Assembly (NCBI GenBank): GCA_018693315.1
Contig: JABHLR010000005.1
Coordinates: forward strand, 11,975-75,974
Direction of reading: 5' to 3'
Length of the DNA stretch: 64,000 nucleotides
From: an archaeon
GTDB lineage: Archaea; Nanobdellota; Nanobdellia; Pacearchaeales; GW2011-AR1
The notes beneath the pieces were generated by a model, which worked only from the letters and a program-made list of their open reading frames with translations, ran no database searches and was not told where the DNA came from. Position numbers and translations under genes: made by a program. Positions 5,709 to 56,512 of the stretch are shown piece by piece (positions within the stretch are counted from its first letter, which is position 1; each line of letters opens with the position of its first letter).

Positions 5709-6023
5709 TGTTACCACTTAGAGATTACAGTAATAGAAAGTTTTTTAAATTGGATTTTGCTTGTGATTTTAACAATAAACAACCAAAGATAACTACGATC
5801 GACAACTCATCCTCTGGATGGCGACACACAACAAATTGTTATCAAAAATGAACTCAAAATGACTTCATTCGTACCCGAAATATCTCGTGATATTTTGTAG
5901 GTGAATGGAATACCTGTCATTAGGCGTTGATGCCTTATAATTGAGATTCATAGTTTTTCTATATAGTGTTAACCGGATTAGATGGTTTTGGTTCGGAATA
6001 CCTTCTTTTGAAAGGAGATTGGT

Positions 6024-7278: not shown

Positions 7279-7374
7279 TCTTAAAATGGTTACCAATGGT
7301 TACCAGTCTTTGGTGTGTGGTTTTTGGGGTGGTCGAGGGGCGCTCAAAATGTTTATAAAGTTGTGATATGTTGG

Positions 7375-12527: not shown

Positions 12528-12543
12528 TTTCTTGGGGGAATGA

Positions 12544-16710: not shown

Positions 16711-17079
16711 ATGCCACATCAATGCGTACATTGTAGTAAAATAATTGAAGTTGGGAGTAAGGAAATTCTCGAGGGTTGTAATAGTTGTGGCGGTAAGTTT
16801 TTTTTCTATATTCGTGATGAGCAGGCGGCTAAAATAAAGGAGTCGAAGGAGGAAGTTATTCCGGAGTTTAATACTGTCGATAAGGTGAAAGTTGAGGAGG
16901 ACGTTCGTAGTATTTTGAAGGTTGAGGATGATGAGAAGCCTGTGATTTTGGATTTGGAGAGCGTGAAGGTTTTAGGTCCTGGAAAGTTTGAGTTGGATAT
17001 TGTGAGTTTGATGAACAGGAAGCCGATTGTGTTTAAGGTTAGCGAAGGGAAATATATTATTGATATTGAGGGGATGTGA
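16711..17079 (+). CDS. Zn-ribbon protein (CxxC...CxxC), DUF2072/COG3364-like
   Basis: N-terminal HQCVHCSKII...CNSCGGKFF four-Cys ribbon. 122 aa. Confidence 0.5.
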   Translation: MPHQCVHCSKIIEVGSKEILEGCNSCGGKFFFYIRDEQAAKIKESKEEVIPEFNTVDKVKVEEDVRSILKVEDDEKPVILDLESVKVLGPGKFELDIVSLMNRKPIVFKVSEGKYIIDIEGM

Positions 17080-17084
17080 TTAAT

Positions 17085-17093
17085 TTTAAATAG
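17085..17093 (+). promoter_or_regulatory. TTTAAATAG box
   Basis: tttaaatagtatttttgctagtatttgttATG. A near-identical 35 nt promoter plus start context recurs before the paralog at 18620. Confidence 0.45.
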
Positions 17094-17113
17094 TATTTTT
17101 GCTAGTATTTGTT

Positions 17114-18589: not shown

Positions 18590-18590
18590 A

Positions 18591-18599
18591 TTTAAATAG
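18591..18599 (+). promoter_or_regulatory. TTTAAATAG box
   Basis: tttaaatagtatttttgttagtatttattATG. Confidence 0.45.
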
Positions 18600-18619
18600 T
18601 ATTTTTGTTAGTATTTATT

Positions 18620-41126: not shown

Positions 41127-42458
41127 TTATTCAAAGTCTTTGGCGAGTTTAAAGATTAGTTCTTCTTGGAAATGTGGTGCCATAATTTGGAGTCCGATGC
41201 CGCCGTTCCATTGCCCTTCGATAGGTAGAGAGATTGCCGGGATGCCTGCTATGTTTGCTAATGCTGTTAGGATGTCGTAGGAATACATTTCTTTGTCTGA
41301 GATTGATTCTCCTATTTTGTGTGGTTTTCGTGGAACTGTTGGCATGATGATTGCGTCGACTTCTTGGAATATTTTTTCGAATTGTTTTTTGACGAAGCTT
41401 CTTGCCCGTAGTGCTTCTTTGTAAAATCTTCCTTCGTGTTCGGCCTTTGTTATTTCTGAACCCCCAAGAATTCTTTTGATAACTTCTGGGCCTGCGGCGT
41501 CTTCTATTTTTTTACCAAATCTTCTACCGTCGAATTTTCTCGTTGCTGAAAAGAATTCTGTGAAGACGATTATGAAATAAGTTTCTAGTGCGATGCCCAA
41601 TGGTAGGTTTACTTTTTTTATTTTCCAGTTGTTTTTCTTCGCGATTTCTTTTGTTTTTTCTTCGATTGCGTTTGCTATTTCTTCGTTGCAGAAATCTTTG
41701 ACGTTGACTAATCCGATTATTCCTTTCTTTGTTGGTTTTGATTTTGGCGCGTCTTTTGTTGTTTGATCGAAGTTATCTTGGCCTTTGATTATGTTGAAAA
41801 TTAGTTTTGCGTCCTCGGCTGAGTTTGCTAGTGGGCCTATGCAGTCGAAGGACATGCACATGTCGATTAGGCCGTAACGTGATACTGCACCGTATGTTGG
41901 TTTTAGTCCTGTGACGCCGCAGTGTGATGCTGGGACTCGGATTGATCCGCCCGTGTCTGAGCCTAGTGCGAAATCGCAAAGTTCTTCTGCGACTGCTGCT
42001 GCCGAGCCTGAGGATGAGCCGCCGGGAATTAGTTCTGGGTTTCTAGGATTTTTAGTTGGACCGAATGCTGAAGTTTCTCCTGACCATCCGCATGCGAATT
42101 CGTCCATGTTGACTCCACCTAAGAGTATTGCGTCTTCGGCTAGGAGTTTGTTGATGACTGTTGCGTTGTATGGAGAGGTGTAGTCTTCGAGTACTTTTGA
42201 TGCGCATGTTGTTTTTTGATGTTTTACCGAGATGTTTGATTTAATGGCGAAGCATAGTCCTGCAAGTTTTCCTGCTGTTCCTTTTTTGATTCGTTTGTCG
42301 ATTTCTTTTGCCTGGTCGATTGCGTCTTCGTTTAGGTTTAGGAAAATGTTTAGGTCTTTTGTTTTTGGGGTTGAGATTTTTTTGGAGAAGTTCATTAGGT
42401 TTTCAACTGCTGTTAGTTTACCTTCTTTGATTTGTTTTAGTTTTGTTTTTAGAGTCAT
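41127..42458 (-). CDS. gatA: Asp/Glu-tRNA amidotransferase subunit A (amidase family)
   Basis: Amidase signature GGSSGGSAAAVA and catalytic Ser/Lys context. 443 aa. Confidence 0.85.
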   Translation of the reverse strand: MTLKTKLKQIKEGKLTAVENLMNFSKKISTPKTKDLNIFLNLNEDAIDQAKEIDKRIKKGTAGKLAGLCFAIKSNISVKHQKTTCASKVLEDYTSPYNATVINKLLAEDAILLGGVNMDEFACGWSGETSAFGPTKNPRNPELIPGGSSSGSAAAVAEELCDFALGSDTGGSIRVPASHCGVTGLKPTYGAVSRYGLIDMCMSFDCIGPLANSAEDAKLIFNIIKGQDNFDQTTKDAPKSKPTKKGIIGLVNVKDFCNEEIANAIEEKTKEIAKKNNWKIKKVNLPLGIALETYFIIVFTEFFSATRKFDGRRFGKKIEDAAGPEVIKRILGGSEITKAEHEGRFYKEALRARSFVKKQFEKIFQEVDAIIMPTVPRKPHKIGESISDKEMYSYDILTALANIAGIPAISLPIEGQWNGGIGLQIMAPHFQEELIFKLAKDFE

Positions 42459-43198
42459 AGTAATTCTTCCAATGGTTTTAATTTAGTATTTAGTGGGATT
42501 TCTTCTGTTATAACTTTTCCATTTGATTTGTATAGCTTGTATGCTTTTGCTTTTTTTGAAGAAGTGATTATACGGTATTTGTCATCAATAATTTCTATAG
42601 CAGTACGGTTTTCTAGTGCGATTGCTGAACCGCCGTATTTCTTTATCATTCTTTTAAGAGATGACTGTCTTGATTTTTCTGCGTTATAGTGAGGGCAAAC
42701 CATTAGGTCTACGAAGTCAAGTCCTTTCAGTTTTATTAATTTTTTATTCTTGGATGGTCCAAATCTCATTGAGTCGGAGTTTCCATATTTCATCCAACAG
42801 ATTGCGCCTGCGCTTATTCCTGAGAGAACTATATCTTTTTTGGCTGCCTTTTCAAGTATCTTATCGACTCCGAGTTTTCTCCATGTTTTTAGCATTCGGA
42901 GTGTGTTCCCTCCGCCAACGTAAATTATATCAGAATTTAAAATTTTATTTTCAATTTCTTTTTTTGTGTAATTTTCTTTTAGCAGGTATAGTGCGTCTGT
43001 TTTGCATCCTAGCTTCTCTCCGTAGTATTTTTTAACAACATCATAATAAGACTCAGAGTCGCTACTTGCAGTTGGAATGAATAGAACTCTTGGGTGCTTC
43101 TTCCCAGTTAGTTTTATTATTTCTTGATCTATTTTTTTTGTTTCAATTTTTGTTCCAGGTCTTCCTATCTCTCCGCCACCAATTGCTACTAGTTTCAT
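42455..43198 (-). CDS. Peptidase S51 (dipeptidase E / cyanophycinase-like)
   Basis: IYVGGGNTLRML...LSGISAGA matches the S51 catalytic Ser context. 4 nt overlap with gatA. Confidence 0.65.
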   Translation of the reverse strand: MKLVAIGGGEIGRPGTKIETKKIDQEIIKLTGKKHPRVLFIPTASSDSESYYDVVKKYYGEKLGCKTDALYLLKENYTKKEIENKILNSDIIYVGGGNTLRMLKTWRKLGVDKILEKAAKKDIVLSGISAGAICWMKYGNSDSMRFGPSKNKKLIKLKGLDFVDLMVCPHYNAEKSRQSSLKRMIKKYGGSAIALENRTAIEIIDDKYRIITSSKKAKAYKLYKSNGKVITEEIPLNTKLKPLEELL

Positions 43199-43815
43199 TT
43201 GATATCTCCTTTTTCGATTAGGAATTTTATATTTGGTGCAACGTTGTGTTTGCCTTGTTTTATCTCTTCGATGTCTAGCCAGATTACTTCTTTAGTAGGT
43301 GCGATTGGTTTTATTTCGTCTGGATTTTTTAATTTTGCGAGATAGTGTATTAGTAGGATCGCCATTTTTTCTTCGGTTTGTGGATTTTTCCAAATGATCA
43401 TTGGATGGAGCGGTTTAATTATTTCGATATTAGCGTTGTTTTCCTCTCTTGCTTCTCGGTAGCATGATTCTTCCAAGTCTTCTGTTCCTGGCGCAACAGA
43501 GCCTCCAGGGATTTTATAGAAGTCATCTTTTCCATCCTTGTTTACTAATAATTTTCCGTCTTGAATAATAACTGGTCCGGTGGCTACGATTGATTTTATG
43601 TTTAGTTTTGCTATTCGCTTGTCGAATTCCTTGAAGATGCTGTTTAGAATAAGTGTTGTAGCTTTTCCTTCTAGTTTTGTACTAAAATCATTATCCTCTA
43701 TCATTCCGTTTTTGCTCATGCTTCTTGCAAGGCTTAATTTTTCTTCTAGGATGTTTGATAATTGTAGATCTAGTTCTTTCATTTTTGATTCTTGTTCATC
43801 GTTCATTTTTTCCAC
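43195..43815 (-). CDS. NUDIX hydrolase
   Basis: Nudix box GGSVAPGTEDLEESCYREAREENN. Confidence 0.7.
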   Translation of the reverse strand: MEKMNDEQESKMKELDLQLSNILEEKLSLARSMSKNGMIEDNDFSTKLEGKATTLILNSIFKEFDKRIAKLNIKSIVATGPVIIQDGKLLVNKDGKDDFYKIPGGSVAPGTEDLEESCYREAREENNANIEIIKPLHPMIIWKNPQTEEKMAILLIHYLAKLKNPDEIKPIAPTKEVIWLDIEEIKQGKHNVAPNIKFLIEKGDIK

Positions 43816-44066
43816 GCTCCTTTTTCTGCTACGATTGCGTCGTCTTTTGCGAATGGCGCGTTTGATAATGTGGTGCTTCGGAATTCTGGATCGGTGTTCC
43901 AGCCTTCGCCTTCTTCTCTTGTTCCTGTTTCGTTTTCGAAGTGGCCTTCTGGAGCTTTTATTTTAGATAATTTTGATGCAAATTCATTTAGGAGCTTCTT
44001 TGAGTCCTTTCGGATTTGTTCTTTTTCTTTCTCGGTGACCTCGTGCCATGTGAAGTTTTTTGTCAT
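43803..44066 (-). CDS. gatC: GatC-like amidotransferase subunit C (putative)
   Basis: 87 aa. C-terminal LSNAPFAKDDAIVAEKG resembles the conserved GatC NAP...DG.F.VP segment. First gene of the overlapping gatC-nudix-pepE-gatA chain. Confidence 0.45.
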   Translation of the reverse strand: MTKNFTWHEVTEKEKEQIRKDSKKLLNEFASKLSKIKAPEGHFENETGTREEGEGWNTDPEFRSTTLSNAPFAKDDAIVAEKGAWKK

Positions 44067-44116
44067 ATAGGATAGTATTTGGAAATGTTTATAATGTTTT
44101 GGTTGTTGGTTATTTT

Positions 44117-44455
44117 ATGAGTGATGACTGTGTGTTTTGTAAGATTGTGAAAGGCGAGATTCCGGCTGAAGTGTTTTTGGCGAATGATGAATTTATTGTG
44201 ATTTTGGATGCGAACCCGAAAGTTGAAGGGCATATGTTGGTGATTCCGAAAGAGCATTATGATAATTTTATGGATTTGCCGTCGGGGATGTATGAGAAGT
44301 TTTTGTCGACTGCGAAGGATGCTATTGAGAAGTTGGGCGTGAAAGATTTTAATTTGATTGTGAATAATGGAAAGGATGCGGGGCAGGTTGTTGGTCATTT
44401 GCATTTGCATATTTTGCCTAGAAAAGATGGTGATGGGTTTGAGATTGGGGCTTAG
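44117..44455 (+). CDS. HIT-family nucleotide hydrolase
   Basis: CVFCKIVKGEIP N-terminus and histidine triad HLHLHILP. ATG at 44117 is in frame with the track ORF. Confidence 0.8.
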   Translation: MSDDCVFCKIVKGEIPAEVFLANDEFIVILDANPKVEGHMLVIPKEHYDNFMDLPSGMYEKFLSTAKDAIEKLGVKDFNLIVNNGKDAGQVVGHLHLHILPRKDGDGFEIGA

Positions 44456-44457
44456 AG

Positions 44458-45843
44458 TTATTTCTTTTTCTTTTTTGGAACATCTGTTTTTATGTGAACG
44501 TCTTTGAGTTGTTGTGTCGATAAAGTTGATGGTGCTTCTGTCATTAGGTCTCGCGCTTCTTTGTTTTTTGGGAATGCGATTGTTTCCCTGATTGATTCTG
44601 CGCCTAATATGATTTGTACCAATCTGTCAAGTCCCCATGCGATTCCGCCGTGAGGTGGTGCTCCAAATTTTAGTGCGTCTAGTAGGAATCCGAATTTTTC
44701 TTTTTGTTCTTTTTCTCCGATTCCTAAAACTTCGAATACTTTTTTCTGGACATCCTCTTCGTGGATTCTGATTGATCCTCCACCGATTTCTGTTCCGTTT
44801 AACACGATGTCGTAAGCGATTGATTTTGCTGACTCTGGATCTTTGTTGAATGATTCCATTTCTGGGTGTGTGAATGGATGATGTGTTGCGATCATTTTTC
44901 CTTTACCTTCTGATTTGTCGAATGCGGGGAAATCTACCACCCAGCAGAATGCGAATTCTTTTGGATCGTCTTTGTTTTTTCTTAGGTCTGGTCTGTCTAT
45001 GTTGTATTTTTTCATTGCGTCATCATATTGAATTCTTTGGAATGGGATTTTGATGTCGACGTTTAAGATTTCTTTCCAGATTTTTTTAAGAAGTTTTTCT
45101 GTTAGTGCTATGATGTCGTCTTGAGATGCGAATGACATTTCGATGTCGAGTTGTGTGAATTCTGGTTGTCGATCTGATCTTAGATCTTCGTCTCGGAAGC
45201 ATCTTGCGATTTGGAAATATTTTTCGAAGCCTGCTACCATTAGAAGTTGTTTGAATAGTTGTGGGGATTGTGGAAGTGCGAAGAATTTTCCTGGCTGTGT
45301 TCTTGAAGGTACGACGTAATCTCGTGCGCCTTCCGGTGTCGATTTTCCTAGGATTGGTGTTTCGAATTCGTTGAAGCCTTCTTCGTATAATGTGTCTCGG
45401 ATGATTCTGATTATTTGGCTTCTTAGGACTAGGTTTTTTTGCATCTCTGGTCTTCTTAAATCTAGATATCTATATTTTAGCCTGGTGTCCTCGTTTAGTT
45501 CATCGTTGTCGATGTCGAATGGTAATGGCGGGCATTTTGTGTAAATTTCTAGTTCTGAGATTTTTATTTCGACTGTTCCGGCTGGAGAGTCTTTGTTTTG
45601 TGTTCCTTCAGGCCTTGGTTTTACTTCGCCTGCTAATCTTACCGAGGATTCTTTGGAAAGTGATTTTGCTATTGCAAAGTTTGTTTCGTCTTTTGCTGTT
45701 GTCAGTGTTTGAACTGTTCCGGTGATGTCTCGGATTTCTAAGAAGATTAGTTTTCCGTGTTCCCTGATTGTGTCGATCCAACCTTTGATTTCTACCTGTT
45801 TTCCTTCCATTGATGGGAGATCTTTGATCATTGTTCTTTCCAT
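44458..45843 (-). CDS. aspS: Aspartyl-tRNA synthetase (archaeal type)
   Basis: N-terminal OB anticodon-binding domain and class II core motifs (FRDEDLRSDRQPEFTQLD, GGGSIRIH). 461 aa. Confidence 0.9.
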   Translation of the reverse strand: MERTMIKDLPSMEGKQVEIKGWIDTIREHGKLIFLEIRDITGTVQTLTTAKDETNFAIAKSLSKESSVRLAGEVKPRPEGTQNKDSPAGTVEIKISELEIYTKCPPLPFDIDNDELNEDTRLKYRYLDLRRPEMQKNLVLRSQIIRIIRDTLYEEGFNEFETPILGKSTPEGARDYVVPSRTQPGKFFALPQSPQLFKQLLMVAGFEKYFQIARCFRDEDLRSDRQPEFTQLDIEMSFASQDDIIALTEKLLKKIWKEILNVDIKIPFQRIQYDDAMKKYNIDRPDLRKNKDDPKEFAFCWVVDFPAFDKSEGKGKMIATHHPFTHPEMESFNKDPESAKSIAYDIVLNGTEIGGGSIRIHEEDVQKKVFEVLGIGEKEQKEKFGFLLDALKFGAPPHGGIAWGLDRLVQIILGAESIRETIAFPKNKEARDLMTEAPSTLSTQQLKDVHIKTDVPKKKKK

Positions 45844-45851
45844 GTTGATTA

Positions 45852-46076
45852 ATGTTAATCGGGGTTTTTAAAATTGTGGGAAGGGTTTTTATAGTGAAAA
45901 GTTTTTGTGGTGTTATGGAAAGTAAGAGGAATATGTTTTGGACTGCTGCTTTGTCTGGTGCTGTCGGTGCTGGGTTTGGTTCTGTTTCGGGTTCGAATAG
46001 TGTTGTTGTGACTTTTATTGTCGGAGCTGTTATTGCGTTTTTGATTGCTTGGGGAATTTCTGGGTTTTTTAAATAA
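45852..46076 (+). CDS. Small hydrophobic protein (74 aa)
   Basis: ORF with two TM-like segments. Weak support. Confidence 0.25.
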   Translation: MLIGVFKIVGRVFIVKSFCGVMESKRNMFWTAALSGAVGAGFGSVSGSNSVVVTFIVGAVIAFLIAWGISGFFK

Positions 46077-47462
46077 TTATAATAATTCTTTTAGAATGTC
46101 TGCGACTTCTTTTCCTGAGACTTGGCCCTTGAATTTTCCCATGAGCAATCCCATATATGCTCCTTGAGATAATCCAGGTTTTTCATTGATTATTTTTTCA
46201 GCTTCGGATTTTAAGTTGATGTCTGATTTTTTCATTGCTTCTTTTAGGGATTTTCCTTGAGATATTTTTTGCATTATGTTTTTTATGTCGTTCTCTGAAA
46301 TTTTTCCTTCTTTGGTTTTTTGGAGGATTTCTTCTAACTTATCTATTAAAACTGGTTTGTCAGTTTGGAATAGTGTTAACATTTTTGCGATTAGGTTTGG
46401 ATTGTTGTGTTCTTGAATTAGAACCTTGAAATCTTCGACTTTGTTTTTCTTTAGAATTAGTTTCATTAGTTCTGGGTTGAGTCCGAATTTGTCGAGGTAA
46501 GATCTGTGTTCGGATGCTAGTTTTGGTAAATTCTTTTTTGTTTCGTTGATTAGTTCTCTTGAGATTTTTAGTAAAGGGACGTCGGTTTCTGGATACATTC
46601 TTGCTGCGCCAGGCATTGGTCTTTGGAATTTTGATGTGCCGTCTGGCAGTGCGCCTCGAACTTCTTTTTGGCAGGATTTCTTTTTAATGCATTCTTGTTG
46701 TCTTTCGATTTCTTTGTCGACTGTTGTGATCATCATTTTTGGATCCTGGAATCCTTTGATTTCTACTCGCTTGCTTCCTTTGATTGAGATGTTTACGTCT
46801 TGACGGATTGTTCCAATTCCTCTTTTGACTTTGCAGGCTCGTAGGATTTCTCCGATTTTCAAGGCGGCTTCTTTGATTTCTTCTGGTGTGTGCATGTGTG
46901 GGCCCGTTGCGATTTCTACCATTGCGAATCCTAGTCTGTCTAGCTTGTAGGTTTTTGAGTTTTCATTTTCTGATACTGGTCTTGCCGAGTCTTCTTCGAG
47001 CATGACTGCGTCGATTGCGATTTTGCCCGATGAGATTTCGATGTAGCCGTCGTGTGCGATTAGTGCTGTTCGCTGGAAGCCTGTTGTGTTTGATCCGTCT
47101 ACTACGGTTTTTCGCATGATTTGTGCGACTGGGAAAATTTTGCAGTTTAATAGGTGGGCTATTTGGAGTGTGATTTTTAGGGCTTCTTGGTTTATGTTGT
47201 GCGGCGGTTCTTCGTCTAGTTCTACCAGGCAGTTTGTGTCGAAAACTTGGTATGTGAAGTTTTTGTTTTGTGTTGCTTCGTGCGCGACTGCTACGTCTAT
47301 CTCGCCCGTTTCGCCGACGACTGGATTTAGTGTTCTTTGGATTTCGTATGATGGTTCGTCGGTTCTAAGGAGGCTTGGGCATTCGCAGAATAGCTTGTGG
47401 GTGTCGAGCTGCTGGTGGATTTCTAGCCCTGATTTTAGTCCGAGTTTTTTGTAGTCTTTCAT
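46077..47462 (-). CDS. gatE: Glu-tRNA(Gln) amidotransferase subunit E-like (short form)
   Basis: N-terminal LGLKSGLEIHQQLDTHKLFCECPS matches the GatE-type GLEIHQQL block (GatB has GLEVH). Next to gatD. 461 aa, shorter than typical GatE. Confidence 0.7.
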   Translation of the reverse strand: MKDYKKLGLKSGLEIHQQLDTHKLFCECPSLLRTDEPSYEIQRTLNPVVGETGEIDVAVAHEATQNKNFTYQVFDTNCLVELDEEPPHNINQEALKITLQIAHLLNCKIFPVAQIMRKTVVDGSNTTGFQRTALIAHDGYIEISSGKIAIDAVMLEEDSARPVSENENSKTYKLDRLGFAMVEIATGPHMHTPEEIKEAALKIGEILRACKVKRGIGTIRQDVNISIKGSKRVEIKGFQDPKMMITTVDKEIERQQECIKKKSCQKEVRGALPDGTSKFQRPMPGAARMYPETDVPLLKISRELINETKKNLPKLASEHRSYLDKFGLNPELMKLILKKNKVEDFKVLIQEHNNPNLIAKMLTLFQTDKPVLIDKLEEILQKTKEGKISENDIKNIMQKISQGKSLKEAMKKSDINLKSEAEKIINEKPGLSQGAYMGLLMGKFKGQVSGKEVADILKELL

Positions 47463-47518
47463 ATCTGATTTAATCTGGGAAGGTTTAAATAAGTTGGTTT
47501 ATTTGGTTTAATAAGGAG

Positions 47519-47794
47519 GTGAAAATGAAATTAACAAAGATTAATTATGTGTCGGCTGTGTTTATTGGAGTGTCTGCTCTGGTGATGTATTTCATCTTGG
47601 GTGTTCTGCAATTGATTCTGTTGTCGCAAGATCCAACTTTGATTGCATTGATGGGGTCTGCTAGTAAGGTTCAGATTCTTGTTTATACTCCGCTTATAGG
47701 TGGTGTTGTTGCATATGTATTTACGCTAGTCATGATTTTAGTTTACAATGTTGTAGCTAAGAAGTTCCCGATTAGCTGGAATATTAAGAAGTAA
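47519..47794 (+). CDS. Small membrane protein (91 aa)
   Basis: Two or three TM segments. Preceded by aaggaggtgaaaATG. Confidence 0.4.
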   Translation: MKMKLTKINYVSAVFIGVSALVMYFILGVLQLILLSQDPTLIALMGSASKVQILVYTPLIGGVVAYVFTLVMILVYNVVAKKFPISWNIKK

Positions 47795-47813
47795 CTAAAC
47801 TAAATTTTTTATT

Positions 47814-49064
47814 TTATTTTTTATTAAATTCGCTAGAAATATTTTCTAGCATCTTTTTTTCTGTGTTCCATTGTTTGTGACCTAGCACCCAGCCAAGTTT
47901 TACTAGAGCTGTTTCTGGAAGCATGTCTTCTAAAAATATGATTCCGGTTTTTTGGAGATCTCGTCCGGCTGTGTATATGTTTGGGTTTAGTCGGCCGTAG
48001 ATCGTTTGTGGGGTTGCACAGATTGTTACGCCTTTTTTTATTGCTTGTTTTATTTTTGGGAGCCAGTTGAATTTTGCGTCTTGGGTTGGGACCTGTCCGA
48101 TTCCTGTTACTTCTAAAACGATTCCTTTGTATCCTTGCTCTTGGTAGAATTCTAGAATTGCGGGATCTTGTCCTGGGTATACTTGGACTAGTGCGACTTT
48201 GTCTTGGAATTTTGTGTCGAGTTTTGCTTTGTTGTCTGATCGGGCGTTGAATGTTTTCAGAATTTCAATTTTGTCTGAGTTGATTTCTGCGATTGGTGTG
48301 TCGTTGATTATTTTGAATGCGTCTCTTCGTGATGTGTGCATTTTTCTGACTTTGGTTCCTGGCATTGCGACGCATGCTTCGTCGTTTGTGTTCTTGTGTC
48401 CGACTAGTGCGACTTCGGCGACGTCTGATGTTGCGTATTTTGCTGCGCAGATTAGGTTTAGTGAGGCGTCGGTTGATGCTCGGTCTACTGATCGCTGGGA
48501 GTATGTTAGCGCGATTGGTTTGTTTAGGTCTTTGATGAAGAATGATAGTGCGGCTGCGGTGTAGTGGAGAAAGTCGGTTCCTTGGGTTACGATTATTCCG
48601 GAGATTGAATCGTCGTTCAGATATTTCTCGCAGACTTCTGCGATTTTTTTCCAGTCAGAGAATGTCATGTTTTCGGACCATTTCATGAATGGGCTGACTA
48701 GGACTGGGTTGCAGATTTTTTTGAGTTCGGGTGCTATGTTTAGGATTGCTTCTTTGTCGGTTGAGATTACTCCTCCTGATTTTGGATCTAGTCTTGAGGA
48801 GATTGTTCCGCCGGTGATTATGATTGCGACGTTTGGTAGTTTTGGGTTTATCGTTTCTGGGGCTTCTGTTTTTTTTGGGGCTGTTGATTTTTCTAGGATT
48901 GTTGCGTCTAGGATTTCGTTTTCACGGATTCCGATGTTGTAGCCTGAACCTAGCTTTAGGAGGATTATTTCTGGGTCGTGGGATTGGAGGGCGTGGCCTG
49001 TCCATGATTTTTCTTTTGTTTGGAGTTTGACTTTGTCGCCAGGGGAAAATGTTTTTGTCTTCAT
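47814..49064 (-). CDS. gatD: Glu-tRNA(Gln) amidotransferase subunit D (asparaginase-like)
   Basis: GatD N-terminal domain (PGDKVKL...LKLGSGYNIGI) and asparaginase motif IITGGTISS. Confidence 0.85.
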   Translation of the reverse strand: MKTKTFSPGDKVKLQTKEKSWTGHALQSHDPEIILLKLGSGYNIGIRENEILDATILEKSTAPKKTEAPETINPKLPNVAIIITGGTISSRLDPKSGGVISTDKEAILNIAPELKKICNPVLVSPFMKWSENMTFSDWKKIAEVCEKYLNDDSISGIIVTQGTDFLHYTAAALSFFIKDLNKPIALTYSQRSVDRASTDASLNLICAAKYATSDVAEVALVGHKNTNDEACVAMPGTKVRKMHTSRRDAFKIINDTPIAEINSDKIEILKTFNARSDNKAKLDTKFQDKVALVQVYPGQDPAILEFYQEQGYKGIVLEVTGIGQVPTQDAKFNWLPKIKQAIKKGVTICATPQTIYGRLNPNIYTAGRDLQKTGIIFLEDMLPETALVKLGWVLGHKQWNTEKKMLENISSEFNKK

Positions 49065-50433: not shown

Positions 50434-51819
50434 ATGAGTGAGAAAGCGTTTCCGGTGAAGATTGGTTTGGAGGTTCATGGGTATCTTGATACTCGGGAGA
50501 AGTTGTTTTGTATGTGTAAGACTGATAGTTTGAGCTCATCCGTTAATTCTAATATTTGTCCGATTTGTACGGGGACTCCTGGTTCGAAGCCGATGGCTGT
50601 TAATGCTGCGGCTGTTGATAAGTTGCTTGAGATTGCTTTGGTTTTTGGGTCTAAGATTAACTATAAGGATTTGATTTGGCAGAGGAAGCATTATGATTGG
50701 GCGGATAATCCTAAGGGGTATCAGACGACGATTTCGGGGGCTCATGCGACGACTAATGCGGTTGGAGGTAAGTTTAAGGGGATAAATATAACAGAGCTTC
50801 ATTTGGAGGAGGATCCGGCGCAGTGGAATCCTGGGACTGGGAAAATTGATTATAATAGATCGGGATTGCCGTTGGTTGAGATCGTTACGGAGCCTGAATT
50901 TAGTGATAGTGAGCAGGTTGTTGAGTGGTTGAAGGCTTTGGTTTTGAGTTTGAGTTATATTAAGGCGGTGAGGAAGAATGCGGGGATTAAGGTTGATGTT
51001 AATGTTTCGACTTATGGTGAGAGGGTTGAGATGAAGAATTTGAATTCCTTAGAGAAGATTCGGAAGGCTATTGAATATGAGATCGCGCGGCAGATTGAGG
51101 CGCATGATAATGGGGAGGTTCAGGAGAGGGAGACTTTGGCGTTTGATGAGAAGCTTGGGAAGACGATTAAGATGAGGAGTAAAGAAGGGGCTGCGGATTA
51201 TAGGTTTATTAGGGATCCTGATTTGCCGATGATTGTTGTGGATAAGAAACGTGTTGGTGAGTTGAAGAGGGGACTGCCTGAGATGCCTGAGAAGAAGTTG
51301 TCGAAGTTGTTGACTAAGTTTAAGGTTGGGGAGAAGGATGCTAAGATACTTACTCGAAATCTAGAGCTTGTCGAATTCTTCGAGAAGCTCGTGGAATTTG
51401 GAGTAGACCCGGGGAGGTACATGTCTTGGATTACGATTGAGTTGTTGAGGGTTTTGAATTATAATAAGAAGTCGCTTGAAGATGAGGATGTTGAGGTTAA
51501 ACCTGAGCATTTGGCGGAGTTGATTAAGGTGGTTGCTGCTGGTGAGATTACTGTTTTGAAGGGGAAGCAGATTATGAATGATATGATTCCGAAGTCGTTT
51601 AGTTTGAAGGATCATAAGGGGGAGATATCTAGTATTGATGAGAGTGCGATAGAGAATCTTTGTCAACAGGTAATTGATGAGAATTTGAAGGTGGTGACCG
51701 AGTATAAAGGTGGGAAGGATGCTAGCTTGAATTATTTAATTGGGCAGGTTATGAGGCTGAGTGAGAGGCGGGCTGATTTTAAGGTCGCTGGGGATTGTTT
51801 GAAGAGGTTGATAGGATGA
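50434..51819 (+). CDS. gatB: Asp/Glu-tRNA amidotransferase subunit B
   Basis: GatB N-terminus VKIGLEVHGYLDT...LFCMC...CPICTGTPG and the C-terminal YqeY-like tail. ATG at 50434. Confidence 0.9.
   Translation: MSEKAFPVKIGLEVHGYLDTREKLFCMCKTDSLSSSVNSNICPICTGTPGSKPMAVNAAAVDKLLEIALVFGSKINYKDLIWQRKHYDWADNPKGYQTTISGAHATTNAVGGKFKGINITELHLEEDPAQWNPGTGKIDYNRSGLPLVEIVTEPEFSDSEQVVEWLKALVLSLSYIKAVRKNAGIKVDVNVSTYGERVEMKNLNSLEKIRKAIEYEIARQIEAHDNGEVQERETLAFDEKLGKTIKMRSKEGAADYRFIRDPDLPMIVVDKKRVGELKRGLPEMPEKKLSKLLTKFKVGEKDAKILTRNLELVEFFEKLVEFGVDPGRYMSWITIELLRVLNYNKKSLEDEDVEVKPEHLAELIKVVAAGEITVLKGKQIMNDMIPKSFSLKDHKGEISSIDESAIENLCQQVIDENLKVVTEYKGGKDASLNYLIGQVMRLSERRADFKVAGDCLKRLIG
51746..51816 (+). repeat. gatB 3' terminal segment; source copy of two downstream partial duplicates
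   Basis: caggttatgaggctgagtgagaggcgggctgattttaaggtcgctggggattgtttgaagaggttgatagg. Confidence 0.7.
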
Positions 51820-52061
51820 AAAGGTGGGCGAAGGTTTTGTTGGTGATTGCGATTGTTTGGATTGTTTTATCTGTTTTTCTTTCTTTTTATTTGTGCAGAG
51901 CTGTAGATAAAAATGTGGCTTGTATGCAGGAGGGCTATTGTCCTGTTAGGAATAACTGTCATTTTGTTGATATGCTTTTGTGGTCTTTTGTTTTAGATAT
52001 TCCTGCGTGGATAATGTTTATTGTTGTGGCTATTTTGGGAAGAAGTAAGGGAAAGAAATAA
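51816..52061 (+). CDS. Small membrane protein (81 aa); start overlaps the gatB stop (ATGA)
   Basis: MKRWAKVLLVIAIVWIVLSVFLSFYL... with two TM segments. Confidence 0.4.
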   Translation: MKRWAKVLLVIAIVWIVLSVFLSFYLCRAVDKNVACMQEGYCPVRNNCHFVDMLLWSFVLDIPAWIMFIVVAILGRSKGKK

Positions 52062-52096
52062 TTCTGTATTAAATTAAAAGGAAAGTAAAGAGAACC

Positions 52097-52330
52097 TTGG
52101 TTCTTTTTGTTGTGGAGCGTAGCGATTACATGTGGTGTGGTGGTGGTGTTGAGGGGATGGGGAGATTGGATAGTCTTTCAGAGAAAGAGATTGATGAGTT
52201 GGCGAAGATTATGGATGTTGGGTTTCTTCAGGATGATTTAGATAGGGATGATAAGATTCTTGTTTTGTCTTCAGAGGCTGAAGAGAAAATTAATGATGGG
52301 TTGAAGAAACTTGGTGGGGGCTCGAAATAA
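52097..52330 (+). CDS. Hypothetical acidic protein (77 aa)
   Basis: ORF only. Its 5' region contains one copy of the GAGCGTAGCGATTACATGTGG repeat. Confidence 0.3.
   Translation: MVLFVVERSDYMWCGGGVEGMGRLDSLSEKEIDELAKIMDVGFLQDDLDRDDKILVLSSEAEEKINDGLKKLGGGSK
52114..52154 (+). repeat. Direct repeat GGAGCGTAGCGATTACATGTGGTGTGGTGGTGGTGTTGAGG; partner at 53859-53917
   Basis: The second copy contains an internal triplication of the GAGCGATTA(C/T)ATGTGG core. Confidence 0.6.
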
Positions 52331-52331
52331 T

Positions 52332-52367
52332 GGTTATGAGGTTGAGTGAGAGAAGGGCTGATTTTAA
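52332..52367 (+). repeat. Partial copy of the gatB 3' end (32 of 36 nt match 51748-51783)
   Basis: ggttatgaggttgagtgagagaagggctgattttaa. Confidence 0.6.
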
Positions 52368-52411
52368 ACAGGCGACGGAAATTATAAAAAGGTTGTTGGG
52401 GGATAAATAAG

Positions 52412-52609
52412 ATGACTAGTGATAGAATAAGTGGTAAAGGGTTAGGTGATTTTGCCCTAGCTGAGGTTGATGCAGCTGATGCAGCTTCTGGTGATTCTTA
52501 TCGCGCATCTATGGGGAGTGATATATGGGGTGTTAGTAATAATACTGGTGCGTCTAGTGAATCTGTTTTGAGTTATGCGGCTAGCTTGGTGGATCAAGAC
52601 GATGTTTGA
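52412..52609 (+). CDS. Hypothetical small protein (65 aa)
   Basis: ORF only. Confidence 0.2.
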   Translation: MTSDRISGKGLGDFALAEVDAADAASGDSYRASMGSDIWGVSNNTGASSESVLSYAASLVDQDDV

Positions 52610-52645
52610 TTTTAAGGTTGCTGGGGATTGTTTGAAGAGGTTGAT
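52607..52645 (+). repeat. Second partial copy of the gatB 3' end (38 of 39 nt match 51773-51811), directly before the HNH gene
   Basis: tgattttaaggttgctggggattgtttgaagaggttgat. Confidence 0.65.
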
Positions 52646-52647
52646 TA

Positions 52648-53427
52648 ATGGTTAATTATGTTGATGAGAATGGTTATAAGAGAGGAAAAATAAAACATTC
52701 AGATTTAATTCACAGACAGATTGCATATGAATTTATTTATAAAAAAAATAAAGGAAAATATTCTAAACCTTTTTCTTCGTATATTGTTCATCATATAGAT
52801 GGCGATAAGAAAAATAATGATATAAGCAATTTGCAAATTATGACTCAGAAGAAACATGAAAAAGTTCATGGGATTATAAGAACAAAAAAAGAAAGAGACT
52901 TATTTGAATTTGAGGAGAAGATTAGAAAGAAAAAGATTCATCCATTAAATGCTGAGTCAATCTCTAAAATAATAAAACAAAACAAAATTTCAAGAAGTAA
53001 TTTGGAGAGAGTTTCAAAATTAAAGAACGTAAAGAAAGCTGAAAAAAAGAAAAGGAATAAAAGAAGGAAGATGTTTTTTGGTTTGATTGTTTTGTTTGTC
53101 GTTTTGTTTGGAATTTTTATTTTTAATGGAGAAGAGGTTAGTCAGAATGCGAATCAGGTTGTTAAGCAAGTTGAAGAAGTTGAACCTTATGAGATTTTAA
53201 TAGATAAATATACAATGATTATAAAAAATAATCAAGACGAAGATATTAATTTGACAATTGTTTATCAAAGATATTCTAAGTGGTTTGGGATAGATGAGGT
53301 AAAAGAGGTGGATGTAGTATTGCTTCCGAATGAAGAGAGGAAAATTGTTGATGAGGGATTTTCTTCAAATAGTGGATGTTCTACTTCTCCGTGTCAATTA
53401 ATTCTAAAAGATGTTATAGTCAACTAA
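52648..53427 (+). CDS. HNH endonuclease-domain protein with a C-terminal TM segment
   Basis: HNH motif HHIDGDKKNNDISNLQIMTQKKHEKVH. Lys-rich linker, then TM FFGLIVLFVVLFGIFIF. Low-GC, A-rich composition. Confidence 0.65.
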   Translation: MVNYVDENGYKRGKIKHSDLIHRQIAYEFIYKKNKGKYSKPFSSYIVHHIDGDKKNNDISNLQIMTQKKHEKVHGIIRTKKERDLFEFEEKIRKKKIHPLNAESISKIIKQNKISRSNLERVSKLKNVKKAEKKKRNKRRKMFFGLIVLFVVLFGIFIFNGEEVSQNANQVVKQVEEVEPYEILIDKYTMIIKNNQDEDINLTIVYQRYSKWFGIDEVKEVDVVLLPNEERKIVDEGFSSNSGCSTSPCQLILKDVIVN

Positions 53428-53816
53428 TGGGAATTATAGAAATTATCGAAAATGCTCCTGCTTGGAAGAAGTGGCTGGGCGCGTCATCTCTCATATTTAT
53501 AATAGCTTTTTTAATTGTTGTTTCAGTTTTTGGAGGGAATGAGGTGGTGACTCTTCCGTCAGATGTTGCAGAAATAAGGCAGAATGCTACAGAATTAGTT
53601 GTCGAGGAAACTGTAAGTGCAGGGGGTGAGATAGCGGGTGCGTTTGCAGATGCAGGAAAAGAAATGGCAAAAACAGTTGATGATCCAATTCTTAGTGCAC
53701 AAATTATTTTTTTAATGTGGCTTTTGGGGGTTTTACTTGCATTTGCTCTGTTTTTAAAAATGTTAGAGGTCGTGGGCATTGATATTGATGCTATTATTAA
53801 AAGTTTAAATAAATAA
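53427..53816 (+). CDS. Membrane protein (129 aa); start overlaps the HNH stop (TAATG)
   Basis: Two TM segments. Confidence 0.4.
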   Translation: MGIIEIIENAPAWKKWLGASSLIFIIAFLIVVSVFGGNEVVTLPSDVAEIRQNATELVVEETVSAGGEIAGAFADAGKEMAKTVDDPILSAQIIFLMWLLGVLLAFALFLKMLEVVGIDIDAIIKSLNK

Positions 53817-53858
53817 TTCTAAGTTACACGAGCGGAGCGATTGGTTGAATAATTTACG

Positions 53859-53917
53859 GGAGCGTAGCGATTACATGTGGAGGAGCGATTATATGTGGTG
53901 TGGTGTTGGTGTTGAGG
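53859..53917 (+). repeat. Direct repeat partner of 52114-52154
   Basis: gggagcgtagcgattacatgtggaggagcgattatatgtggtgtggtgttggtgttgagg. Confidence 0.6.
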
Positions 53918-54016
53918 CACTGCTGTAAGTACCCTCTGTGGAGGGCAGGATGGGAGAAGATTGTTGGGAGGCAGGGAGAGAGGAAGATTTTTAAGAGTGT
54001 GAATTTCTGAGATTGG

Positions 54017-54415
54017 ATGGAAAATAGAGCGTCGGAATATTTTGATAGTAAATTTCGGAAGTGTAAGCAGAGGATTAGGTTGGCTTTTGCTGGAGTTGTT
54101 CTTGGGACGGTTTGTTCTATTGGCGGGGTGATGCTTAATGGTGGAAAATTCTTGGCGCGAGATTCGGGGAAGAGTTTTGTTGAGAAGCGGGTTAGTGATT
54201 CGCTTGTGCTTGGCGGAGGTTTGTTGACTGCCTCTAGTATGGTTGGGGTGTTATTGTGTACTGCGAAGGATGATAAGCTGAAGAAGGAGAGGCGTGAGTT
54301 GGATAGACAGATGATTAAGGCTGATATTTATTCTAGGGAATTTGATCGTCGAGAAGAGATGTTGTCTGGTGGTAATAAGTATGGTGGGGTTAGGGATTTG
54401 TATAAGTGTAATTGA
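54017..54415 (+). CDS. Hypothetical membrane protein (132 aa)
   Basis: ORF with two TM-like segments. Confidence 0.35.
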   Translation: MENRASEYFDSKFRKCKQRIRLAFAGVVLGTVCSIGGVMLNGGKFLARDSGKSFVEKRVSDSLVLGGGLLTASSMVGVLLCTAKDDKLKKERRELDRQMIKADIYSREFDRREEMLSGGNKYGGVRDLYKCN

Positions 54416-55411: not shown

Positions 55412-56512
55412 ATGGAAGGAGATGAGATCGGTTCAGTTAGGATTCTTGCTAAGGGTTTGTCGACTGTTAGAAAAACTAAATCTGGATGGATGAAGGTTTA
55501 TGTTGATATTCCGAAGACGTTTGATGCGATAAAACTTTTTAAGAAAAATAATTATTTGAAGGCTTTGGTTGATTCCAAGGATTCGAAGTTTTTGAAGGGC
55601 GGGTTGAATGCGAAGGGGAAAGTTTTTGGGGATAGGGTGAATGTGCTTCCGAGTAAACATGAGTTAGATAAGGCGTTTTCGCTTTTCGCTGATGGTTTGG
55701 TGATTCATGATGAGTTGTCGAGTTCGCATTGGGATGTGATTTTTAGGAATCCGAATGGTAAGTATTCTTATTTGTATACTTTGGAAAAGAAGAAAAAAAG
55801 TAAGGCGAGGAAGTTTTCGGCTGTTGATAATTTTGAGAAGAATTTGGTTAAGATAAATCGGGCTGTGAATAAAGGGATTGTTGATGGTGATTTGATGGCT
55901 TTGGCGATGAGGACTTTGTTGCAAACTAGGATGAGAGTTGGTAGTGAGGTTTATTATAAAGCTGATGGACATAAGGGTTTGACGACGCTGAAGAAAGGTG
56001 ATGTGAAGATTTCTGGGAATAAAGTTACGTTTTCATTTATTGCTAAGGATGGCGTTCCCCAGGTTATTAGTGAGAGGTTTTCGAAGGAGTATGTTAAAAA
56101 TTTGAAGAGTGTTTTGAGAAAGTTGAAGAGTAATGGTTTTATTTTTGCGAAGGCTGGTCGGCCATTTAGAGATACGGATTTTAAGAAAGCGTTTGAGAAT
56201 TATTGTGGTGAGGAATTTTATCCGCATATTGTTAGGTCTCATTATGCTACGAAGAGGGCTGAGGATTTTTTGAAGAAGCACAAGAAGTCTAACAGGGATG
56301 AGGTTGAGAAATTGTTTGGGGATATTGCTGTGAAGTTGGGGCATAAGAAATTTTCGAAGGGCGAGTGGAAGACTGATTATTCTGCGACTGTTCATTATTA
56401 TATTAAGCCGAAGTTTGTTGATAGGATTTTGAAGAAAATGGAAGCTGGCGCCGCACGCGGCATACCCTCTAAGGAGGGAACTAAAGTTCCAGTTTTATCG
56501 GGCAAAGTTTAA
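55412..56512 (+). CDS. Type IB DNA topoisomerase, small poxvirus/bacterial-type (putative)
   Basis: Matches to conserved TopIB blocks: NPNGKYSYLY (cf. DxxGRxQYxY), TRMRVG...GLTTLKKGDVKISGNKVTFSFIAKDGV (cf. vaccinia IRFG...GLLTLKNKHIEIS...FVGKDKV with catalytic Lys), PHIVRSHYA (Arg), LGH...HYYIKP (cf. catalytic Tyr in Y-[IL]-x-P). About 366 aa. Confidence 0.6.
   Translation: MEGDEIGSVRILAKGLSTVRKTKSGWMKVYVDIPKTFDAIKLFKKNNYLKALVDSKDSKFLKGGLNAKGKVFGDRVNVLPSKHELDKAFSLFADGLVIHDELSSSHWDVIFRNPNGKYSYLYTLEKKKKSKARKFSAVDNFEKNLVKINRAVNKGIVDGDLMALAMRTLLQTRMRVGSEVYYKADGHKGLTTLKKGDVKISGNKVTFSFIAKDGVPQVISERFSKEYVKNLKSVLRKLKSNGFIFAKAGRPFRDTDFKKAFENYCGEEFYPHIVRSHYATKRAEDFLKKHKKSNRDEVEKLFGDIAVKLGHKKFSKGEWKTDYSATVHYYIKPKFVDRILKKMEAGAARGIPSKEGTKVPVLSGKV

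Follow-up and report, generated by a model that had tools for sequence, protein, structure and literature searches.

How do DPANN archaea, which have tiny genomes and are thought to be host-dependent, acquire and express new surface genes? The window, that is the whole 64,000-nt stretch of archaeal DNA analyzed here, raises this question in a narrower form, with the last 45-80 bases of its gatB gene recurring twice downstream, each time ahead of small unrelated genes. The best explanation, to which we give about an even chance, is that the region downstream of gatB is a gene-insertion hotspot in which recombination inside the gene tail duplicates this tail, the copies being kept as a portable expression module.

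The gatB tail and its copies in the window

The order of the elements is T1-m81-R1-o57-T2-o65-T3-HNH259-m129-R2, in which T designates the gatB tails and R a second repeat. The features of the region are the following:

50434-51819, + strand: gatB, Asp/Glu-tRNA amidotransferase subunit B, intact (Pfam GatB_N 2.4e-71, GatB_Yqey 4.6e-29)
51747-51819, + strand: T1, the own 73-nt tail of gatB (VMRLSERRADFKVAGDCLKRLIG-stop), reference copy of repeat family D1
51816-52061, + strand: m81, 81-residue ORFan with two hydrophobic segments, its ATG overlapping the gatB stop codon (ORF list)
52087-52113, + strand: 9-bp hairpin and T-run after m81, a possible transcript end judged from the sequence (DNA folding recovers the stem)
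52114-52154, + strand: R1, copy of the clade-wide R box (GAGCGTAGCGATTAC...) with a G/T-rich extension common to R1 and R2 only (repeat alignment)
52157-52330, + strand: o57, small acidic ORF with no Pfam family, its stop overlapping the T2 ATG (TAATG)
52330-52410, + strand: T2, complete displaced type II gatB tail, an open 26-codon mini-ORF (HMM score 44 bits)
52412-52609, + strand: o65, small ORF without family, its 3' end overprinting the 5' part of T3 in another frame
52572-52655, + strand: T3, third gatB tail, with a decayed 5' part and its 3' 39 nt 38/39 identical to T1
52648-53427, + strand: HNH259 (Pfam HNH_3 1.3e-9, residues 41-71)
53427-53816, + strand: m129, membrane ORF, its start overlapping the HNH259 stop (TAATG) (ORF list, Pfam search)
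53813-53917, + strand: R2 complex: stop codon-TAATTCTAAG followed by the R box TTACACGAGCGGAGCGAT at 53824-53841, a further two incomplete R units, and the same G/T-rich extension as in R1
53987-54415, + strand: o132, next gene of the variable region, with a putative TATA-like element GATTTTTAAGAG ~30 nt upstream (sequence)

Alignment matches 51747-51782 with 52332-52367 (33/36 identical, E 6e-7) and 51774-51812 with 52607-52645 (E 3.7e-12). This agrees with an earlier note on this DNA, according to which the gatB tail recurs twice downstream, the second time next to the HNH gene with one mismatch, except that the first copy has three mismatches and not four. Neither is this first copy a fragment, as was then believed: it belongs to the complete tail T2, which has its own ATG and stop, encodes MVMRLSERRADFKQATEIIKRLLGDK-stop and is recovered by tblastn with the gatB tail (74% over 23 residues, E 6.6e-8). 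The 5' end of T3 keeps GTTATGCGGCT and, with a 9-nt indel, aligns over 26 residues (E 6.2e-6), and the open mini-ORF of T3, starting at 52602, reads MFDFKVAGDCLKRLING-stop. The HNH259 ATG (52648) lies inside T3, 5 nt before the T3 stop, an arrangement found likewise in the gatB tails of the loci L013 and L109. The gatB-tail repeats are real and non-random, and gatB is the only one of the 75 window ORFs of at least 150 residues whose tail recurs as isolated downstream pieces. Moreover, four contigs that were assembled independently from other samples contain the repeat region with 100% identity, so that it is not an assembly artefact.

T1 carries a TATA-like GATTTTAAGG at 51775-51784 and a conserved block, TTGAAGAGGTTGAT, that includes a Shine-Dalgarno-like GAGGT, and it ends in an ATGA stop/start overlap with the next gene. 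The TATA-like box, the GAGGT and the ATGA overlap all fall within the last 14 gatB codons, where synonymous-codon conservation peaks among 32 species (rank 1 of 431 codon windows, p=0.0014), with a codon identity of 0.78 vs 0.38 for Leu and of 0.75 vs 0.30 for Arg. This constraint bears on the nucleotides. Exact matches to the end module AAGAGGTTGATNGGATGA are present in ~25 loci, those of L092 and L112 being isolated copies. The last 45-75 nt of gatB would have a second role, that of providing the gene behind with expression signals, the TATA-like box, the GAGGT and the stop/start overlap. The promoters of the genome itself resemble TTTATATA or GGTTTAAGTA, ~29 nt upstream of the ATG. Type-II tails exhibit TATAAAAA at -29; in T2, the EIIKRL codons read ATTATAAAAAG, which brings this motif 29 nt upstream of the o65 ATG. 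In type-I tails the TATA-like box is located 39 nt upstream of the ATG and not ~29 nt, so that the promoter and Shine-Dalgarno readings cannot both be optimal. A scan for sigma-70 promoters and intrinsic terminators was uninformative, as these models do not apply to archaea, and an Rfam search of the window region and seven related loci at a permissive E-value returned no credible match. A tRNA scan reported no tRNA near the locus, which is therefore not a tRNA-type att site.

Displaced tails and gene turnover in related species

The closest species-level gatB relative of the window is 83% identical at the amino acid level. At least 10 other related DPANN species have the same architecture, in which tails alternate with unrelated small ORFan genes coding mostly for membrane proteins. 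Displaced tails, in arrays of 2-4 tails or as remnants, occur in L006/L110, L010, L020/L102/L105, L068, L085, L087, L088, L092, L095 and L112. Only the tails repeat in these arrays, and the intervening genes are unrelated. Between L085 and L088, T2 and T3 are 95% identical as compared with 83% for gatB, and the cassettes are unalignable; the window T2 shares 80% nucleotide identity with the T2 of these two loci. All of the ~14 displaced tails inspected are open mini-ORFs with a start codon, and most overlap or abut the stop and start of their neighbours.

Gene content behind gatB turns over even between close relatives. The gatB genes of L109 and L112 are 96% identical, homology stops 4-8 nt before the stop codon, and beyond this point only R elements are shared. 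The conserved neighbour gene c51 adjoins gatB in three species, is displaced from it by 0.8-1.25 kb in three, and lies inverted inside an insert in one. In a clean case, L068, an AbiE toxin-antitoxin pair is located between 75-bp tail repeats, and the 4.8-kb insert of L006 encodes HTH proteins and a nuclease-like gene. The independent tail arrays, the shifts of c51, the L109/L112 pair and the AbiE cassette uphold the proposal of the earlier note that genes were inserted repeatedly at one place, the gatB 3' end, with target duplication. The empty site that it proposed to define in related genomes exists at the clade level, where c51 adjoins gatB in some species and is displaced in others; for the window's own cassettes, all ORFans, none was found among the relatives, which are either identical contigs or at most 83% identical in amino acids. 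The m81 gene, of native-like composition, has no homolog but itself among 5.8 billion proteins and is thus unusable for locating an empty site. The hotspot would be a small hypervariable island common to a clade of Pacearchaeota/Woesearchaeota-like DPANN archaea. It has acquired new genes more than once and, judging from the sequences, probably reuses the gatB end as their expression signal.

The R box

The second repeat described in the earlier note at 52114-52154 and 53859-53917 is present, as 52114-52135 equals 53859-53880 (22/22) and 52121-52154 matches 53884-53917 (32/34), and so is the internal triplication of R2 (GAGCG-AGCGATT at 53830, 53860 and 53884). The R 21-mer occurs twice in the window, with 0 occurrences expected from shuffles. 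Its core is a conserved intergenic box of 18-20 nt, TTACACGAGCGTAGCGAT, found in at least 12 related loci and downstream of gatB only; R is therefore not the flanking target-site duplication that had been suggested, and its recurrence in so many loci is of the kind that the earlier note had itself named as counter-evidence. Scanning viral contigs for the R box gave 0 matches. Folding of seven R elements as ssDNA returned z-scores of -0.2 to +1.6, with small local hairpins only, and no element-spanning imperfect palindromes; on this basis, R was rejected as an attC-like hairpin.

How genes may enter behind gatB

In the preferred explanation, new genes would arrive through recombination within the tail or at its end. 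The likeliest route would be Campbell-type or unequal homologous exchange with tail-gene segments of related cells, for which the conserved R element would provide another homology anchor. Every such event would restore an intact gatB and leave the earlier tail before the earlier gene. In the displaced tails, the 3' part would be under selection, as translated mini-ORFs or as promoters feeding the next gene, and the 5' parts would decay or be overprinted. Four independent partial tails (L085/L088 T3, L006, L020 and L010) all begin at GGGCNGATTTT, GGG(C/T)NGATTTT, and the identity flanking the L020 insert amounts to only 8 nt; long-homology recombination fits these two observations less well than a site-specific or microhomology crossover does. 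The start positions of the full-length copies differ. Neither a circular intermediate nor a donor was seen.

The locus represents a recurrent clade-wide slot for gene gain beside an essential gene, in which the coding end of gatB may double as promoter and ribosome-binding/coupling signal, copied with each new gene. If confirmed, this would offer a testable model in which genes turn over like cassettes and no integrase is linked to them, together with a natural coding sequence that is under dual coding and regulatory constraint and acts as a portable module for expression. With the tail module and the R box as a sequence handle, the genes of these organisms that evolve fastest, and that probably serve host interaction, could then be found in metagenomes.

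An unlikely alternative assumes that the gatB 3' end serves as attB for plasmids or viruses that encode a tyrosine integrase and whose attP carries a replacement tail, and that repeated integration and deletion leave att-bounded remnants. [quoted passage not shown] It would account for the direct repeats around the inserts (T1/T2/T3, and the repeat around the AbiE cassette), for the HTH proteins and the nuclease-like gene of the L006 insert, for the occurrence of an HNH homolog (P0002) on a contig that also encodes an integrase and a primase, and for the common boundary of the partial tails and the 8-nt flanks of L020. The gatB locus shares with the Thaumarchaeota iMGE arrays (PMC6563490) a target at the 3' end of a gene that is conserved, a replacement end that leaves this gene intact, direct repeats originating from the gene end, and reuse of the site, which yields several copies in a row. 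Unlike these arrays, the gatB locus contains no integrase or other element backbone but single tiny ORFan units of 0.16-1.2 kb, the repeat copies are more conserved between species than gatB, and they appear to be kept as start/stop-coupled mini-ORFs and promoter-like modules. No tyrosine or serine recombinase is found among the Pfam-annotated genes from 42.4 to 59.8 kb, hence no integrase within 8 kb on either side, the only candidate being an unlinked Topoisom_I gene at 55412-56512. TopoIB was rejected as a linked recombinase, since its proximity to gatB is confined to the window and L015. The L006 and L068 inserts are devoid of integrase, and tblastn with the L113 integrase and other L113/L116 element proteins against all loci returned no match. 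Likewise, no tail-like attP was found: the tail pattern has 0 matches on 2.9 million viral contigs, and no tail copy is present on L113-L116 or on 55 viral loci with HNH relatives. Cassettes as small as 160-500 bp and the variable starts of the full-length copies also argue against integration. The site-specific attachment site of the earlier note is only putative on these grounds, yet the four partial copies do begin at one motif. Under this alternative, the GGGCNGATTTTAAGG core would be the candidate recombinase target.

Flexible islands of the Tycheposon or tRNA-island type also gather cargo at a hotspot where partial copies of the end of the target gene recur. They insert at tRNA genes and encode or require identifiable integrases, whereas at the gatB locus the target is the tail of a protein gene that is possibly also an expression signal.

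It is rather unlikely that DPANN archaea possess an undescribed integron-like platform with the gatB tail and the R box as its pair of recombination sites, a platform that is served by an unlinked recombinase or the cell's own machinery and captures and expresses ORFan membrane or surface genes between portable start and stop/spacer modules. A stricter form of this reading, in which the recombinase is an unlinked one, the gatB tail corresponds to attI plus promoter and the R box to the recombination site associated with a cassette, is distinctly unlikely. The mostly single-gene cassette arrays, with two conserved repeat types only downstream of gatB, the precise cassette ends (start from the tail module, stop-TAATTCTAAG from the R module) and the same framework filled with different cassettes in different species are consistent with such a platform. 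Integrons and CALINs, including archaeal integrons (PMC9668308), similarly have a fixed platform beside an expressed gene, small cassettes between conserved repeats, and a content that varies among close relatives. However, there is no IntI-like gene nearby (42.4 to 59.8 kb), one of the repeats is a gene tail and the other a 20-nt box that lacks an attC-like hairpin and element-spanning imperfect palindromes (folding z 0 to +1.6), some cassettes are inverted on the opposite strand, and no identical cassette was seen in two arrays. A further difference is that the repeat itself would supply the expression signals of each cassette.

It is very unlikely that slippage or unequal crossing-over gave rise to local tandem duplications of a unit made up of the tail and a small two-TM gene, after which the membrane genes diverged fast and the tail was conserved. 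The unit sizes are similar (periods of 248-585 nt), many cassettes encode two-TM proteins of 75-100 residues, and a few cassette proteins show weak similarity (z 3.2-3.6). Nevertheless, in the all-against-all comparison of small membrane cassettes these alignments are low-identity TM matches of marginal z, nucleotide similarity is absent outside the tails, and the units lack paralogy over their full length. Unrelated cassettes lie between orthologous tails of 95% identity, and the cassettes include unrelated soluble ORFs, the AbiE pair, the HNH protein and a gene of foreign composition.

The HNH gene

Homing by a free-standing HNH endonuclease that cuts the gatB tail of HNH-less alleles, repair then copying the HNH gene with imperfect target duplication, is a form of the homing proposed in the earlier note and is hardly credible: although the HNH_3 domain gene begins inside a tail copy and L108 likewise has an HNH-containing gene directly after gatB, the L108 protein is built differently, with its HNH at the C-terminus, it is the only exception among 108 loci in which no HNH259 homolog adjoins gatB, arrays are found without HNH gene in L085, L087, L088, L010, L020, L006 and L068, T1-T2 and R1 lie outside any HNH-linked unit, HNH259 is AT-rich and membrane-anchored by a transmembrane segment with an extracytoplasmic domain, and its relatives, on plasmid- or virus-like contigs, do not adjoin gatB on the contigs examined.

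Free-standing HNH homing endonuclease genes of phages, as known from the mob/seg genes of T-even phages, spread by intronless homing. The window resembles them in that an HNH gene lies between conserved genes and abuts the end of an essential gene; it differs in the membrane anchor, in the repeats of relatives that lack HNH259, and in the absence of HNH259 from this place in other genomes. HNH259 comprises an N-terminal HNH_3 domain, a basic linker, one transmembrane segment and a C-terminal Cys-containing domain, and the H-H...N...H motif is kept in the family alignment. A phage-database search with HNH259 returned weak generic HNH matches only. The GC content of the gene is 25-30% vs 39-44% in its neighbours, and homologs reside on contigs with integrase and primase or with Rep_1, and on viral contigs. 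The HNH gene is of foreign origin, and its composition and relatives point to cargo from a plasmid or virus and not to the driver of the array. With recombination inside the gatB tail as the preferred explanation, the AT-rich HNH-membrane gene would be the most recent visible arrival, joined at the 7-nt microhomology ATGGTTA.

Repeats downstream of gatB and the anatomy of the tails

The window comes from a DPANN archaeon, and the best relatives of its GatB belong to metagenome-assembled genomes (MAGs) labelled Nanoarchaeota, Pacearchaeota or Woesearchaeota, with amino acid identities of at most 83%. The repeats reported in the earlier note downstream of gatB are present, all far above chance expectation: the end of gatB recurs twice (51747-51782 versus 52332-52367, identity 33/36; 51774-51812 versus 52607-52645, identity 38/39), and a second repeat, R, links 52114-52154 to 53859-53917 (22/22 plus 32/34). 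Both downstream tail copies are real, but the first, described as a fragment, is a complete second tail. Four contigs from assemblies of other samples match the region at 100% identity, which rules out an assembly artefact. Of the 75 long ORFs in the window, none but gatB has a C-terminal peptide that reappears downstream in isolated pieces.

Elements of the gatB-downstream region
50434-51819, gatB (Pfam GatB_N and GatB_Yqey), ending in its own tail, T1
52114-52154, R1, first copy of R
52330-52410, T2, displaced tail with its own ATG and stop, encoding MVMRLSERRADFKQATEIIKRLLGDK
52572-52655, T3, displaced tail whose 5' end retains GTTATGCGGCT, followed by a 9-nt indel and a diverged stretch
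53813-53917, R2, second copy of R

The genes of the array are chained through overlapping or abutting stops and starts. gatB overlaps the small gene m81 (ATGA), the HNH gene HNH259 overlaps m129 (TAATG), and the central part reads o57-TAATG-T2-TAAgATG-o65, the ATG of T2 overlapping the stop of the ORF o57. The diverged stretch of T3 is overprinted by the end of o65, whose stop overlaps the start of the T3 mini-ORF, and the last 39 nt of T3 are near-identical to those of gatB; read in the tail frame, T3 encodes VMRLAWWIKTMFDFKVAGDCLKRLING before its stop, and the HNH259 ATG sits 5 nt 5' of that stop. R1 comes after m81, beyond a 9-bp hairpin and a T-run, and R2 after m129.

Displaced tails in related species

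Displaced tails were sought with an HMM of the gatB tail on six-frame translations of related loci, which are MAGs or metagenome contigs throughout, many of them short. In 80 other species, the genes that follow gatB in the window are not found behind it, with the single exception of topoIB in L015; extra gatB tails, by contrast, do occur in other species.

Displaced tails found with the tail HMM (L numbers denote related loci)
L006/L110, 4.8 kb downstream
L010, directly adjoining
L020/L102/L105, beyond a 226-nt hairpin-rich insert
L068, AbiEi/AbiEii pair bracketed by a 75-bp repeat (3 mismatches)
L085, three tails
L087, two tails
L088, four tails
L092 and L095, displaced tail
L112, two short end remnants

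All displaced tails inspected are open reading frames with a start codon, which usually overlaps the previous stop, and their stop overlaps or abuts the next start. At the nucleotide level the small genes between tails, or cassettes, are unrelated to each other and their protein similarity is marginal at best; most encode ORFans of 75-100 residues with two transmembrane (TM) helices, and m81 has no homolog among 5.8 billion proteins.

The L068 pair (7290-8830), the cleanest single insertion of the data set, is an AbiEi/AbiEii-like toxin-antitoxin pair of 1.39 kb between the two tail copies; its AbiEii Pfam match is weak (E 2.9e-4, 21.3 bits, just under the 22.5 cut-off), and the AbiEi-like partner has no Pfam match. 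L095 carries a frameshifted remnant of the gatB 3' end (4202-4395, about 190 nt, residues 405-461). The 4 kb upstream of it contain no gatB, the tail being far-displaced or orphaned, and at 0.8-1.2 kb on the downstream side there are R boxes and a tRNA-like sequence.

Insertion and cassette turnover

The gatB genes of L109 and L112 are 96% identical, yet homology ends 4-8 nt before the stop codon, and beyond it the genes are unrelated, only R elements being common (98% over 61 nt). A conserved 51-residue, two-TM protein with the motif …IGLIGMFAFPSPQQNFLYYIG…, c51, is absent from the window and varies by species in its distance and orientation relative to gatB; it is probably the ancestral gatB neighbour, displaced by insertions.

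Positions of c51 relative to gatB
Adjoining (L001/L093, L099/103/107, L089): L001 7437-7526; L107 8039-8122; L089 2151-2294
At 0.8-1.25 kb: L097 951-1097; L109 1671-1823; L096 1521-1661
Inverted, inside an insert: L006 10309-10449, reverse strand

In L085, L087 and L088, the distal copy is the widely conserved type-I tail (…[D/E]CLKRLIG before the stop), while the present gatB end is type II in L085 and L088 and …EILKRLIGRD in L087, as expected if incoming DNA supplies a new gene end. The gatB of L020 ends in a tail of foreign codon usage, and a native-type tail, 90% identical to that of the window, lies 226 nt downstream, the insert being flanked by the 8-nt GGGCGGAT. The recurrence of the tails and this turnover, both seen in related species, establish that DNA has repeatedly been inserted at the end of gatB with duplication of the tail, as the earlier note had proposed, and that the 3' parts of displaced tails are conserved.

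The L020 insert itself (1418-1645, also in L102 and L105) is made up of the replacement tail and four GC-rich hairpins, whose loops are of the GAA/GCGA/TTCG type; the insert may be MITE-like, or else a small structured RNA.

The gatB tail as a candidate expression module

Synonymous-codon conservation peaks in the last 14 gatB codons, which rank first of 431 14-codon windows (32 species; Mann-Whitney p=0.0014); codon identity there is 0.78 for Leu, 0.75 for Arg and 0.82 for Lys, versus 0.38, 0.30 and 0.54 gene-wide. The constrained patches are GATTTTAAG and TTGAAGAGGTTGAT. Tails fall into two types: type I (…DCLKRLIG before the stop) carries a TATA-like GATTTTAAGG 39 nt upstream of the next ATG and GAGGT 7 nt before the stop-overlapping ATG (ATGA), and type II (…E[T/I]IKRL…) contains GAAAYTATAAAAAG, yielding a canonical TATAAAAA at -29. 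In this genome and its relatives, the promoters of other genes resemble TTTATATA, TTTATAAA or GGTTTAAGTA; these sit some 29 nt upstream of the ATG, and the leader is very short or absent. Exact matches to the 18-nt end module AAGAGGTTGATNGGATGA occur in about 25 loci, among them isolated copies in L092, where the module forms a fusion with a membrane gene's end, and in L112 (1.7 kb downstream of gatB). Between L085 and L088, T2 and T3 are 95% identical, gatB 83%, and the cassettes between tails unalignable. Because of this synonymous constraint, the promoter-like boxes, the exact end module and the conservation of the tails, we infer that the gatB tail may be a portable expression module, comprising a promoter and/or ribosome-binding site and a coupling ORF, the promoter and Shine-Dalgarno assignments resting on sequence resemblance and synonymous constraint.

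The R repeat

Related loci totalling 1.09 Mb contain 23 copies of the R core, TTACACGAGCGTAGCGAT, all of them on the same strand as gatB and at a distance of 0.2-2.5 kb downstream; a copy typically comes directly after a stop codon (…TAATTCTAAG-TTACACGAGCG…) and is followed by a G-rich stretch and the TATA box of the next gene. A search for R elsewhere in the 64-kb window found it confined to the gatB-downstream region. R1 and R2 share a lineage-specific G/T-rich extension; they are therefore paralogous copies of an intergenic element, and not the target-site duplication flanking genes that had been proposed. The box might act in termination or insulation, bind a protein, or serve as an anchor for recombination. 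In DNA folding, the R elements do not form attC-like hairpins, and no Rfam family matches them.

A G-run-rich segment with a hairpin lies 3' of the R box in four loci; the hairpin shows compensatory changes (GGAATCTTCGATTCC versus GGGAACGTTCGTTCCC), and AGATACACGGCGGC… GC hairpins come after it. Quadruplex formation by the G runs is conceivable, and the segment has no match in Rfam. Near position 330 of L089, on the reverse strand, a tandem array of an R-box-like 16-nt unit, CTACCAGCGAAGCGAT, echoes the internal reiteration of R2.

G-run/hairpin segments
L096, 741-960
L087, about 2780-2960, reverse strand
L097, 1113-1260
L088, 3267-3500, 4108-4300 and about 5010-5150

Possible routes of insertion

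The route we prefer, with chances that seem evenly balanced, is homologous exchange, Campbell-type or unequal, in which related cells contribute [tail-gene(-R)] segments; foreign DNA would occasionally be joined through microhomology, and selection would then preserve the 3' 20-45 nt of every displaced tail. Its main rival, integrase-mediated integration followed by decay, has an archaeal precedent (PMC6563490), and four independent partial tails share the start GGG(C/T)NGATTTT; we nevertheless regard it as unlikely, as no integrase was found in or near any array, an attP-like copy is absent from viral contigs, and cassettes are as short as 160 bp. An integron-like platform served by an unlinked recombinase appears somewhat less probable still, and tandem duplication with divergence is disfavoured as improbable. 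Homing by the HNH gene, put forward in the earlier note, is the most doubtful, given that the tail arrays of other species have no HNH gene, and for this reason HNH259 is recently acquired cargo rather than the driver.

HNH259 has an N-terminal HNH_3 domain, connected through a basic linker to a hydrophobic transmembrane segment (FFGLIVLFVVLFGIFIF), and its C-terminal domain contains Cys; the GC content is 25-30% versus 39-44% in its neighbours. Among 5.8 billion proteins, only 8 are relatives of it; where their context is available, the contigs are AT-rich and encode an integrase and a primase (L113) or, in the case of L116, a Rep_1 initiator, and the HNH domain is also present on viral contigs. 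At the T3/HNH259 junction, the native gene start in L113 and a …AATGGTTAA tail variant also found in L013 and L109 have 7 nt in common, ATGGTTA. Directly after gatB, L108 encodes another membrane protein, distinct from HNH259, in which the HNH domain is C-terminal.

The closest known kind of system, the re-used integration site at a gene 3' end, likewise yields tandem repeat copies. The gatB arrays differ from it in having no linked recombinase, in holding single-gene ORFan micro-cassettes, in tail copies that are more conserved than the host gene and kept as coupled mini-ORFs or promoter modules, and in R, a further conserved box that is restricted to the island. We found no description of this tail/cassette arrangement in the literature on DPANN archaea.

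Other observations

Strand asymmetry is extreme across the window (1-64000): GC skew reaches +0.4 to +0.6 where genes lie on the forward strand and is about 0-0.25 at 37-48 kb (reverse-strand genes, AT skew -0.3 to -0.45), and coding strands are strongly depleted in C. Two large ORFs have a 920-nt repeat in common in their 3' parts (4791-5709 versus 11625-12528, 85% identical). Shared 5' regions (17075-17229 versus 18581-18681; 598-735), which include the promoter-like TTTAAATAG, occur in three large ORFs that probably encode paralogous surface proteins. In-frame insertions occur in gatB of L088 (19-1584, about 65 residues between the helical and tail domains) and L032 (6001-7974, about 200 residues). 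Besides GatB, the window encodes GatD, a GatE-like protein (GatB_N only) and a GatA-like amidase within 10 kb (41127-49064). A eukaryotic-type topoisomerase IB (55412-56512) lies 3.6 kb downstream of gatB, and is near gatB in L015 too.
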